Under the pieces are notes generated by a model, which was not told where the DNA came from, did no database searches, and worked only from the letters and a program-made list of their open reading frames with translations. A program made the translations under genes and the position numbers. This document shows positions 26,117 through 47,831 of a stretch of 64,000 nt of DNA, in pieces. How positions within the stretch are numbered: position 1 is the first letter of the stretch; each line of letters starts with the position of its first letter. The stretch is from Candidatus Moraniibacteriota bacterium (GTDB taxonomy: Bacteria > Patescibacteriota > Minisyncoccia > Moranbacterales > UBA1568), in NCBI GenBank assembly GCA_037201605.1, contig JBBCGM010000001.1, positions 147,585 to 211,584 on the forward strand. Reading direction: 5' to 3'.

Positions 26117-27680
<1,564 letters not shown>

Positions 27681-27829
27681 AAAGAGGAATGAGATGTTAA
27701 CCTTTCCACAGCCTCTCGGTGGAAAGGCACTCCCGAAGGAATGTCTCGATTGCGATAGCCCGTAGGCTATCTGAATTGAAGAGGATCTCCGTCATATGAC
27801 ACTTGACTCCCGAAGGAGAGAAAAGCGCC

Positions 27830-41171: not shown

Positions 41172-41273
41172 TGGAATCTCCTACTCTCTTTGAAATGAAC
41201 TGAAATAAGCGAATGCTTATCAAAAGAGCTTACTCCAGTTGAGAAGAATGTCAATTATCTTCTAGCTGCAGAT

Positions 41274-41692
41274 AAAAACCCGCATCTAGCGGGTTTTTAT
41301 TTCACGTAGCCCCACGGGGAGATCTCACTCGCTTCGCTCTCTGAGAACGCCTCCGTTCTCAGCGGCCCAATGAGAATTGGGCCTGCTCTCCGCAAACGGG
41401 GAAACACATGTTTCCCCGACCCCCTTCCTGTTCGACTCCCGTGAAAGATTAAGTAAACTAAAAACCCGCATCTAGCGGGTTTTTATTTCACGTAGCCCCA
41501 CGGGGAGATCTCACTCGCTTCGCTCTCTGAGAACGCCTCCGTTCTCAGCGGCCCAATGAGAATTGGGCCTGCTCTCCGCAAACGGGGAAACACATGTTTC
41601 CCCGACCCCCTTCCTGTTCGACTCCCGTGAAAGATTAAGTAAACTAAAAACCCGCATCTAGCGGGTTTTTATTTCACGTAGCCCCACGGGGA
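41274..41692 (-). repeat. tRNA-3'-end-linked structured element, Glu copies: two identical 186-bp tandem units plus the 47-bp founding repeat at the tRNA-Glu 3' end
   Basis: Units at 41274-41459 and 41460-41645 appear identical. 41646-41692 repeats the first 47 nt (terminator aaaaacccgcatctagcgggttttt plus the tRNA 3' end) before diverging into the T loop of tRNA-Glu. Confidence 0.85.
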
Positions 41693-41750
41693 ATCGAACC
41701 CCGCTTTTCAGGATGAGAACCTGATGTCCTAACCGATAGACGATAGGGCC
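41679..41750 (-). tRNA. tRNA-Glu(CTC), no encoded CCA
   Basis: Reverse complement GGCCCTATCGTCTATCGGTTAGGACATCAGGTTCTCATCCTGAAAAGCGGGGTTCGATTCCCCGTGGGGCTA. Anticodon loop TTCTCAT. Confidence 0.85.
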
Positions 41751-41763
41751 TATTTTTTCTTTG

Positions 41764-41834
41764 CAGGGGAGGAAGGAATCGAACCCTCACTAGCGGTTTT
41801 GGAGACCGCCGTTCTACCACTAAACTACTCCCCC
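41764..41834 (-). tRNA. tRNA-Trp(CCA)
   Basis: Reverse complement GGGGGAGTAGTTTAGTGGTAGAACGGCGGTCTCCAAAACCGCTAGTGAGGGTTCGATTCCTTCCTCCCCTG. Anticodon loop CTCCAAA. Confidence 0.85.
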
Positions 41835-41875
41835 GAGCGATTCACTCACTTATAGTATATAGCAAAACCGAGAAC

Positions 41876-42189: not shown

Positions 42190-42196
42190 TAGTCTG

Positions 42197-42452
42197 CTAG
42201 ACCCAGATTCCATTTATAAGCTTCTCCTTCTTTTCTCTTGACCATCCCTTAATCTGAGCTTCTCTTAGTCCTTGCCTGAGACTTACTCTTAAACGACTGA
42301 GAGATATACAACAGAACAAAGGGACCCTGCTGTAAAGCCATGCGTGATCCTTTACCGGCATTATGCTTCTCTAATCGCTTCTGCGGCGAGGTAGTAATAC
42401 CCGTGTAGTATCTTCCTGTCCTTGCTTTTGCGATATATACGTACCAATTCAT
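42197..42452 (-). pseudogene. GIY-YIG nuclease-family small protein (UPF0213-like), one frameshift
   Basis: MNWYVYIAKARTGRYYTGITTSPQKRLEKHNAGKGS... The conserved C-terminus LREAQIKGWSREKKEKLINGIWV* is in another frame (stop 42197-42199). Confidence 0.75.
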
Positions 42453-42532
42453 ACGTGCCCTTCGACAAGCTCAGGGTACCTCACCTCGCTTTGCGCCCAG
42501 TTTACACTGAGCGAGCAAAGCGAGTCGAAGTG

Positions 42533-47684: not shown

Positions 47685-47831
47685 CTACTTGCGCTTCTTA
47701 GCCTTTTTCTTCGTGGTCTTCTTAGCAGCCTTTTTGGTTGCCTTTTTCTTCGTGGTCTTCTTAGCAGCCTTTTTGGTCACCTTCTTTTTGGTGGACTTCT
47801 TCTTGGCTACCTTTTTTTTCTTTGTTGCCAT
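47685..47831 (-). CDS. 48-aa extremely basic Lys/Ala/Thr-repeat protein (histone-H1/Hc1-like tail composition)
   Basis: Hand translation: MATKKKKVAKKKSTKKKVTKKAAKKTTKKKATKKAAKKTTKKKAKKRK*. RBS aaaggaggtg lies 7 nt upstream. The DNA contains a 33-bp direct repeat. Confidence 0.65.
   Translation of the reverse strand: MATKKKKVAKKKSTKKKVTKKAAKKTTKKKATKKAAKKTTKKKAKKRK

Follow-up and report, generated by a model that had tools for sequence, protein, structure and literature searches.

Gene-less elements bearing copies of tRNA 3' ends lie just downstream of tRNA genes across Patescibacteria

Integration targeted to tRNA genes leaves a classic signature, a direct repeat of the tRNA 3' end that runs from the T-loop to the end of the tRNA. 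Other mobile DNA depends on folding of a single strand: the attP of the CTX phage (IMEX type) is a pair of inverted dif-like sites separated by about 90 nt, and its ssDNA fold mimics dif for XerCD. The R boxes of integron attC sites carry AAC/GTT. In Patescibacteria, tRNA genes are also known to harbor group I introns, which interrupt the anticodon loop (35/36), exceed 200 nt, and are self-splicing (PMC13011429). Here, we describe short elements that follow the tRNA-Glu and tRNA-His genes in a 64,000-nucleotide stretch of a Candidatus Moraniibacteriota genome (the window), and we compare them with these systems and with relatives in other Patescibacteria.

The tRNA-Glu locus is read on the minus strand, where tRNA-Trp lies 12 nt upstream of tRNA-Glu(CTC), followed by an intrinsic terminator, unit 1, unit 2, and unique sequence that holds the promoter of a phosphoribosyltransferase gene (Table 1). 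TRF detected one array at 41273-41692 (period 186, 2.3 copies, 100% matches, score 840), made up of two 186-bp units and a 48-nt copy of the tRNA-Glu 3' end with its terminator. An original prediction made from the letters of the window had proposed two identical units at this gene, and both TRF and direct comparison bear it out: the units at 41460-41645 and 41274-41459 are 100% identical, with a copy number that rests on a short-read MAG assembly. The 47-nt copies of the tRNA-Glu 3' end that had been read in the sequence, CCCCGTGGGGCTA plus terminator, recur exactly at three positions (41645-41691, 41459-41505, and 41273-41319) and comprise the T-stem 3' half, the acceptor 3' strand, the discriminator, and the terminator. 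T60 of the T-loop is identical as well and lengthens the repeat to 48 nt; because it reaches only one base into the T-loop, the break falls at the T-loop/T-stem boundary, where it had been placed before. Folding reproduced the three hairpins originally proposed, which are those of unit 2 in Table 1. The inverted arm of the Glu copies is degenerate, TTTCACGGGAG versus the expected TAGCCCCACGGGGA. No ORF of at least 50 aa was found in 41172-41875 and no promoter-like site inside the units. The genes neighboring the array are housekeeping genes by Pfam, and the claim that the window copies have no integrase or transposase nearby stands, their neighbors being ordinary genes.

Table 1 Features of the tRNA-Glu array and of the tRNA-His element in the window.
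Feature	Position	Strand	Basis
tRNA-Glu(CTC), intact	41679 (or 41678)-41750	minus	ARAGORN; Rfam tRNA 56.3 bits
Direct-repeat copy 0: tRNA-Glu positions 60-73 and intrinsic terminator, 48 nt	41645-41692	minus	exact repeat; terminator scan
Unit 1, 186 nt	41459-41644	minus	CM match 41493-41637, 79.4 bits; folding; exact repeat
Unit 1 spacer	41631-41644	minus	
Unit 1 degenerate inverted arm, TTTCACGGGAG	41622-41632	minus	
Unit 1 TCGAAC	41616-41621	minus	
Unit 1 purine junction	41604-41615	minus	
Unit 1 hairpin P2	41584-41603	minus	folding
Unit 1 hairpin P2a	41550-41569	minus	folding
Unit 1 hairpin P3	41527-41548	minus	folding
Unit 1 3' block ending GAGATCT, then repeat copy 1	41459-41505 (repeat)	minus	
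Unit 2, identical to unit 1	41273-41458	minus	TRF; CM match 41307-41451; folding
Unit 2 TCGAAC	41430-41435	minus	
Unit 2 hairpin P2	41398-41417	minus	folding
Unit 2 hairpin P2a	41364-41383	minus	folding
Unit 2 hairpin P3	41341-41362	minus	folding
Unit 2 repeat copy 2, then unique sequence	41273-41319	minus	
tRNA-His(GTG), last gene of Lys-Arg-His cluster	5266-5339	plus	
His direct-repeat copy A: T60 to acceptor end and terminator	5323-5358	plus	
His single element, subfamily 1A (differs from Glu copies)	5359-5516	plus	CM match 5386-5529, 73.8 bits
His element parts: spacer; degenerate inverted arm (..CCTGGGAA); TCGAAC; core ending AGTGAGATCT	5402-5407 (TCGAAC)	plus	
His direct-repeat copy B: tRNA-His 3' end and terminator	5517-5551	plus	

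The related copy proposed at tRNA-His was recovered as a 35(+1)-nt repeat (5324-5358 and 5517-5551) around a 158-nt insert; the terminator in the first repeat uses the acceptor strand in its stem. One element family occupies both sites, and the duplicated tRNA ends are specific to each host gene, as had been argued. The two core blocks said to be shared between the Glu and His copies fared differently: the 5' block is shared with one indel, and the 3' block is not, except for AGTGAGATCT. Within the window, GCGAAGCGAGTGAGATCT at up to three mismatches matched the Glu copies only. A covariance model, proposed earlier as a check, scored the three window copies (two Glu, one His) at 74-79 bits, all three having belonged to its training set, and found no further copies in the window.

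To place the family, we ran an exact-pattern scan for the conserved 5' block over one-genome-per-species contigs, which yielded 73 stretches, and over metagenomes, which yielded 79 more; the related loci were examined as stretches of 8-15 kb. The core motif is present at about 145 public Patescibacteria (CPR) loci, and the genome-scan matches all fall in Patescibacteria except for a handful of GC-rich chance matches. Hosts include Saccharibacteria, Paceibacteria, and Yonath-, Jorgensen-, Nomura-, Wolfe-, Kaiser-, and Moraniibacteria. The elements lodge just downstream of tRNA genes, usually past the native terminator. Specifically, the motif is preceded by a tRNA on the same strand in 57 instances from the genome scan and 68 from the metagenome scan, at a distance that is nearly always 6-110 nt and is larger in tandem or composite arrays; the matches without such a tRNA are chance matches or lie at contig ends. 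The tRNAs beside the family 1 motif cover 18 amino-acid identities. The same core beside 18 identities in about 145 loci cannot be explained by a single fixed attP/integrase pair, which upholds the original argument from two sites. The full architecture was seen in 88 of the 246 tRNAs of the examined loci, a fraction biased upwards because the loci were chosen for the motif, and 15 of these 88 have cores outside family 1. Diverged tandem arrays occur in independent assemblies (L103, with units about 10% different, L023, L018, and L038), so tandem arrays are a real, recurrent state. The recent amplification suggested for the window array is plausible, the 48-nt direct repeats offering a simple route by unequal recombination and the diverged arrays in L103 and L023 providing parallels. 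In L029, 2.9 kb of cargo genes lie between two element copies in a cassette-like arrangement.

All parts of the element occur in a fixed order: tRNA, spacer, inverted copy of the tRNA end, core, T-loop-like block, and direct copy of the tRNA end. The spacer is often the native terminator, with a terminator-like hairpin upstream of the element in 60% of copies and after the right arm in only 35%. The left arm, overlooked in the original prediction, repeats the T-loop, T-stem 3' half, and acceptor strand in inverted orientation and ends in ..AATCGAA(C). It always starts at tRNA position 53/54 and extends outwards by a variable 5-21 nt; about 10 of 80 copies have it at full length (about 21 nt), among them L040, L056, L103, L131, L020, and L024, and in the remainder it stops abruptly after 5-12 nt. 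The T-loop-like block reads GTTCGATT or GTGAGATT, or contains an inserted GCGAAGC mini-hairpin. The right arm reproduces tRNA positions 61-73 (T-stem 3' half, acceptor 3' strand, and discriminator) in direct orientation and starts inside the T-loop at 55-57, at C56 in family 2 and at about G57 in family 1. With the inverted arm starting at 53/54 and the direct arm at C56 or about G57, the junctions lie inside the T-loop. In most loci the right arm is identical to the tRNA at 13 of 13 positions; its end is normally 0-3 nt from that of the tRNA gene, and it carries CCA only where the gene encodes CCA. The window copies are unusual in that their direct repeat also covers the terminator; in most relatives it stops at the tRNA 3' end and excludes the terminator, a feature also missed earlier. 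The only sequence common to the ends of all copies is TCGAAC / GTKMGA.

The two arms are preserved to different degrees. In 45 copies, the right arm matches the tRNA at 96% of T-stem and 94% of acceptor positions, versus 80% and 45% for the left arm. The far better preservation of the right arm suggests function or concerted evolution rather than an inert target duplication. Mispairs in the arms (80 G.U versus 81 A.C) reveal no strand bias; given this equality, the arms behave as plain DNA copies, and we rejected selection on them at the RNA level. Alternatively, the arms could be what remains of tRNA gene copies that were duplicated or inverted, such as the inverted tRNA-Arg with the same terminator in L158.

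The family 1 core begins with an invariant purine junction (NGGAAGGGGGTC), followed by hairpin P2 (GGGGAAAC-loop-GTTTCCCC, many of its loops GNRA-type), a second purine junction, optional hairpins, and hairpin P3, whose loop carries ..ACCGNGGGT... The purine tracts of the junctions are nearly invariant. In 109 model-aligned copies, 95.7% of the cells in the consensus helices are paired. Changes on both sides of a pair occur in 124 cells; shuffling gives 37, and none of the 500 shuffles attained the observed number. The covariation score of the whole structure is 0.265, compared with 0.143 in shuffled alignments (again equaled by 0 of 500) and at most 0.131 when helix partners are slid, which destroys the signal. 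P3 alone exists in 44 stem versions, with both sides of its pairs changed in about 37% of rows. On the tRNA-sense strand, non-Watson-Crick cells comprise 28 G.U versus 9 A.C in P2 and 12 versus 3 in P3, and this excess indicates that the fold is selected on that strand. The bias fits RNA or single-stranded DNA alike; the recurrence of GCGAAGC, known as a very stable DNA mini-hairpin, speaks weakly for DNA folding. At least three other core families, absent from the original prediction, share the same arms and were found in the same loci at tRNAs without the family 1 motif. Family 2 reads AGNCGGAG..GGGGTCGAGAG-hairpin-CTCGTGACC, family 3 includes GGCGACGCCCGC.. and AAGCGGAGC.. types, and family 4 reads AAGGTTGAGC..GTGCGAAACC... 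A small peptide was also considered and discarded, the SD-like GGAGG tracts preceding no conserved reading frame by eye. Potential complements of the invariant purine tract at other positions of the window, 16S rRNA among them, matched at chance level. As for core-less palindromes that could have served as pre-existing targets, one degenerate case (L053) was seen, and a pattern scan found no more.

An orthologous site in related Paceibacteria, tRNA-Arg(gcg) downstream of a conserved 161-aa membrane-protein gene, was followed by comparing the contigs of homologues of this protein. The site is empty in L167, where the tRNA is followed by a plain terminator. It holds a family 1 element in L020, family 4 in L169 and L177, family 2 in L179, and families 2 and 4 in tandem in L173 and L176. 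The tRNA gene itself is inverted against the same terminator in L158-L165, and in L172 the site is rearranged and adjoins a ParB-like gene. Contig breaks are frequent at tRNA/element sites in related contigs (L166, L168, L170, and L171). At occupied sites, the terminator between tRNA and element is homologous to that of the empty site. The insert thus consists of the inverted arm, core, and direct arm, placed past the native terminator, and the repeat on the right is not just the original end of the tRNA shifted aside. The left arm of L020 is the exact complement of the L167/L158 tRNA allele (G64), and the tRNA and right arm of L020 are both A64; the right arm tracks the resident allele, and the left arm does not. 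L034 and L045, also at tRNA-Arg, have arms and spacer in common and differ in their core interiors. At the tRNA-Arg locus, what survives of the left arm is its outer portion (GTGCC) and not its inner one, the reverse of the trend seen overall; no single rule of arm formation can therefore account for all copies.

Cores at different tRNAs of the same genome can be much alike: they are 76-87% identical in JBBILW and JAKAID, versus a median of 48% between genomes. Together with the changes at tRNA-Arg, this likeness shows turnover and intragenomic spread rather than vertical conservation. Horizontal transfer across classes, a candidate raised by the identical cores of L020 and L024, was dropped; the 'Saccharibacteria' label of L020 is doubtful, since its flanking protein is 84% identical to Yonath/Parcubacteria proteins. 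The comparison with sister genomes that had been proposed earlier gave a divided result. No empty counterpart of the window's tRNA-Glu or tRNA-His site was found (the best homologue of the flanking phosphoribosyltransferase has 47% identity, and an L33 look-up returned nothing), and it is the tRNA-Arg(gcg) site elsewhere that occurs both empty and occupied.

When 1.16 Mb of related loci were scanned for tyrosine and serine recombinase motifs, a single Xer-like ORF emerged, at a distance of 4.4 kb from an element. None of about 150 copies has an integrase beside it, and no related autonomous IS was found in the related loci of 8-15 kb. Nor did the analysis recover an enzyme acting in trans, a free form, or an excision product. 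All-against-all clustering of flanking ORFs for an associated protein returned only spurious ORFs overlapping the tRNA or the element. A small GIY-YIG ORF in the window was set aside as a partner, as it is not linked with elements elsewhere, and GC skew in the window was uninformative about a replication-strand bias. Two IMG/VR scans, which addressed a viral origin, gave only chance matches in GC-rich or unrelated contigs. A full-length element encoding a recombinase and carrying the same core, which according to the original prediction would reduce these copies to ordinary remnants, was not found in the genome, metagenome, or viral scans. With Rfam 15 at gathering thresholds, only tRNAs and 16S rRNA pass in the window. 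A permissive scan of 41200-41760 revealed nothing above noise besides tRNA-Glu; the best match, at 24 bits versus a threshold of 42.5, is a tRNA-like model overlapping that tRNA. The unmatched Rfam 15 families include small ribozymes, Y RNA, tmRNA, retron msr, and introns. Keyword and sequence-string searches of the literature returned no description of the elements. The family is apparently undescribed, in that we could not find a match in Rfam, viral contigs, or the searched literature.

The elements resemble tRNA-targeted integrative elements and CIMEs in their position immediately 3' of an intact tRNA, in the direct repeat from T-loop to tRNA end (48 nt at Glu, 36 nt at His, and 13/13 in most loci), and in tandem accretion at one tRNA. 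They differ in being about 140 nt long and gene-less, in the extra inverted tRNA-end copy and covarying core hairpins, and in the native terminator that separates them from the tRNA. Pfam, ORF clustering, the 1.16-Mb scan, and IMG/VR revealed no integrase in the element or in a related autonomous element, and the same core at 18 tRNA identities departs from one att specificity per lineage. The layout of CTX attP is closer in that an inverted target, a spacer of about 100 nt, and a direct target follow one another, with no recombinase of its own, a strand-specific fold, and tandem arrays. However, the target here is a tRNA 3' end and not dif, the arms differ at every site, and the element is a hairpin only, without a phage genome or known enzyme. 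Inverted arms that could pair over their full length occur in about 10/80 copies, and those of the other copies are shorter. Integron attC sites are likewise imperfect palindromes of 60-140 nt, defined by fold more than sequence, that act as a single strand in a strand-specific manner and have ends in ..AAC and GTT.., to which the cassette-like L029 may be added. In contrast to attC, the center of the present elements is strongly conserved in sequence and the outer arms derive from the target; there is no IntI or attI, no tyrosine recombinase nearby, and the constant neighbor is a tRNA gene and not an ORF.

MITEs, REPINs, and IS200/IS605-derived elements are also short, protein-less, multi-copy intergenic hairpins, often near terminators and presumably mobilized in trans. 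Shared terminal inverted repeats and a short target-site duplication are lacking here, however; the inverted repeats copy the local tRNA and not the element. Functional tRNA-trailer RNAs (such as the E. coli 3'ETS-leuZ sponge) and RNAs with tRNA-like ends (tmRNA, bacterial Y RNA, and viral TLS) are comparable in three respects: a location in the trailer 3' of a transcribed tRNA unit, a 3' end that equals a tRNA acceptor strand, and a closing stem resembling the T-stem/acceptor minihelix. The compensatory covariation expected of a structured RNA is present. Unlike these RNAs, the elements usually lie past the terminator, have no T-loop in the mimic, are multi-copy and insertion-polymorphic, and match no Rfam family. 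The group I introns of the same phylum are RNA elements tied to tRNA genes as well, whereas here the tRNA is intact, the element lies outside it, and intron models give no match (PMC13011429). Because each known system has at least one defining feature that is absent here or lies beyond these data, we file the element under none of them.

We assign a probability of about 0.5 to the reading that these are protein-less, non-autonomous mobile elements of about 110-190 nt, forming a Patescibacteria-wide superfamily with arms templated by the target tRNA, and that the window array grew by unequal recombination or slippage. A host ncRNA module of tRNA operons is an unlikely alternative, in which a core RNA would be made by terminator read-through, the copies would be paralogues, and the arms would form a closing stem imitating the T-stem/acceptor, its ends defined and stabilized by tRNA-processing enzymes. 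The covarying core hairpins with a G.U excess on the tRNA-sense strand only, the nearly invariant junction purines, and the many GNRA-type P2 loops are as such an RNA would have them, as is a right arm that is 94-96% identical to the tRNA, ends exactly at its 3' end, and follows the resident allele in L020. Yet the terminator-like hairpin precedes 60% of copies and follows the right arm in only 35%, the window units are without a promoter-like site, the arms lack a strand-specific G.U excess, and most copies have lost the acceptor complement. The orthologous site, moreover, may be empty or hold unrelated cores, and no Rfam family matches. Somewhat less probable still is a folded ssDNA element that uses a host recombinase, like CTX phage with XerCD or an integron attC. 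Its annealed arms would copy the duplex tRNA-gene target around the core as a structured loop, and a tyrosine recombinase or HUH enzyme encoded elsewhere would exchange strands at the T-loop; this scheme spells out one particular form that the mobility step of the preferred reading could take. The searches above yielded no candidate enzyme, a sequence-specific one would need to accept at least 18 different arm sequences, and T-loop integration of a circle carrying its old arms would give a chimeric tRNA. Many left arms are also too short for a mimic stem. What speaks for the folded strand is the CTX-like succession of inverted target copy, about 100 nt, and direct target copy, combined with strand-specific folding, tandem arrays, and no recombinase in cis. 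The ends ..GAAC / GTTC.. resemble the AAC/GTT of attC R boxes, GCGAAGC recurs, the elements sit past terminator hairpins, and L029 is cassette-like.

Decayed att sites, that is, cis-mobilizable leftovers of islands or prophages once moved by an integrase, are an improbable source. One conserved core beside 18 tRNA identities, an integrase beside none of about 150 copies, the absence of the core from IMG/VR, and an inverted arm and covarying core foreign to att remnants all stand against them, even though the direct repeat from T-loop to tRNA end is the signature expected of tRNA-targeted integration and both the 2.9 kb of cargo between two copies in L029 and the ParB-like gene beside the L172 site could be read in their favor. 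At tRNA-Arg, the native terminator lies between tRNA and element, so the right-hand repeat is not simply a displaced tRNA end, which further argues against att remnants. It is very improbable that the tandem duplication in the window is an assembly artefact, caused by incorrect resolution of a perfect 186-bp repeat in a MAG built from short reads. The units are 100% identical, the source is a MAG contig, and related contigs often break at such sites (L166, L168, L170, and L171), but the diverged arrays in independent assemblies (L103, L023, and L018) cannot be artefacts, and the finding stands even with a single copy.

If these protein-less elements are mobile, as we favor, they would be non-autonomous and depend on a factor encoded elsewhere. 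This trans-acting factor would recognize the folded core, as ssDNA or as read-through RNA of the tRNA-sense strand, and drive insertion at a universal, partly palindromic T-loop sequence (GTTCGAAT / GTTCGATT). The arms would be made at insertion, with the target tRNA gene copied from the T-loop outwards, and target specificity would be copied afresh from each new tRNA instead of being carried by the element. Templated arms would account for arms that match the tRNA exactly at 18 identities, for inner junctions that are precise, and for a left arm whose outer end is abrupt and variable. Once in place, the 48-nt direct repeats may have led, through unequal recombination or replication slippage, to the two identical 186-bp units, and deletion would be equally possible. 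A more tentative reading, which we hold to be possible, is that of an element class anchored at the T-loop whose specificity is re-copied from the target tRNA and whose core is a single-strand fold that recruits a host enzyme.

Whether DNA or RNA, these elements account for the breaking of contigs at tRNA loci when CPR genomes are assembled, and they can mislead the annotation of tRNAs and att sites. The 3' flanks of tRNA genes emerge as rearrangement hot spots, where gene inversion, cargo insertion, and core swapping are seen. Patescibacteria genomes are tiny, yet a sizeable share of their tRNA genes carries the module in our motif-selected sample. Should the elements be RNA instead, few undescribed structured RNAs of the phylum would be as widespread. 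If the arms are templated by the target, they would represent a new mode of site recognition for a gene-less element, and, if the more tentative reading is true, a nucleic-acid-templated, self-reprogramming homing to tRNA genes would operate in the reduced genomes of Patescibacteria.

Comparison of closely related genomes, judged against the same upstream gene and terminator, revealed that the tRNA-Arg(gcg) gene at the hot spot beside the conserved 161-aa gene is inverted in loci L158–L165 (positions about 2050–2125) relative to L167 (about 2090–2165), the empty state with a plain terminator. In this lineage, palindromic terminators are the points around which tRNA genes flip. Several metagenome contigs at this hot spot (L166, L168, L170, L171, and L174) terminate within or just past the tRNA-Arg gene; short-read assemblies are probably broken by these repeats.

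An arrangement that looks cassette-like and lacks a recombinase was seen at the tRNA-Gln locus L029, where a 201-nt repeat (986–1186 and 4044–4244, 99% identical) brackets 2.86 kb. Each repeat comprises, in order, the tRNA-Gln 3′ end, a spacer, the element, a tRNA end, and a 20-nt flank. The bracketed cargo carries a nucleoside 2-deoxyribosyltransferase as well as a DUF1697 gene and an unknown gene of 468 aa, with a third, partial, and degenerate copy of the tRNA end (1880–1938) between the cargo genes.

In a tRNA cluster of the window, tRNA-Tyr and tRNA-Thr(ggt) are separated by a 342-nt insert (42190–42531, minus strand), which the equivalent cluster of locus L140 lacks. The insert encodes a small GIY-YIG-type nuclease, whose gene appears to be split into two overlapping ORFs by a frameshift; tblastn showed no association of this nuclease with the elements at other loci. 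Elsewhere in the window, the G+C content falls to 0.40–0.46 between 12000 and 28000, versus about 0.55 outside this interval, which includes a 16S rRNA gene; no 23S or 5S rRNA genes were detected within the window. TRF identified a tandem repeat at 47701–47819 with a 39-nt period (2.6 copies, 90% identity), overlapped by a 15-nt period.

Coordinates of genes and mini-hairpin motifs in the window and in L029
Feature	Location	Strand	Context
Small GIY-YIG-type nuclease	window 42249–42452 and 42197–42361 (overlapping ORFs)	minus	342-nt insert
16S rRNA gene	window 26119–27683	minus	low-G+C interval
GCGAAGC	window 41325–41331 and 41511–41517		window units
GCGAAGC or C-GAA-G mini-hairpin	L029 1003–1011		spacer

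The family-1 locus L020 is labelled Saccharibacteria, yet it shares an identical element core with Yonathbacteria L024, and the protein encoded beside it has 84% identity to proteins of Yonathbacteria/Parcubacteria. The taxonomic label or binning of L020 is doubtful. In locus L004, whose element has a right block with a complete T-arm, ARAGORN called a 94-nt 'tRNA-His' within the element (392–485); false tRNA predictions can arise from element copies.

The 3′ block, optional hairpin loops, and spacers of the elements repeatedly contain mini-hairpins of the form C-GAA-G or GCGAAGC, the latter known as a DNA hairpin of unusual stability. Short hairpin insertions also interrupt the tRNA-derived arms, namely the left arms of loci L045 and L169/L177 and the right arm of L007, which is split by a 46-nt insert. 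One such insertion, GAGAACAAGCCAACTGCTTGGCTTGTGT, occurs again downstream in L169. A second hairpin, smaller still and prone to insertion, is suggested by these interruptions.
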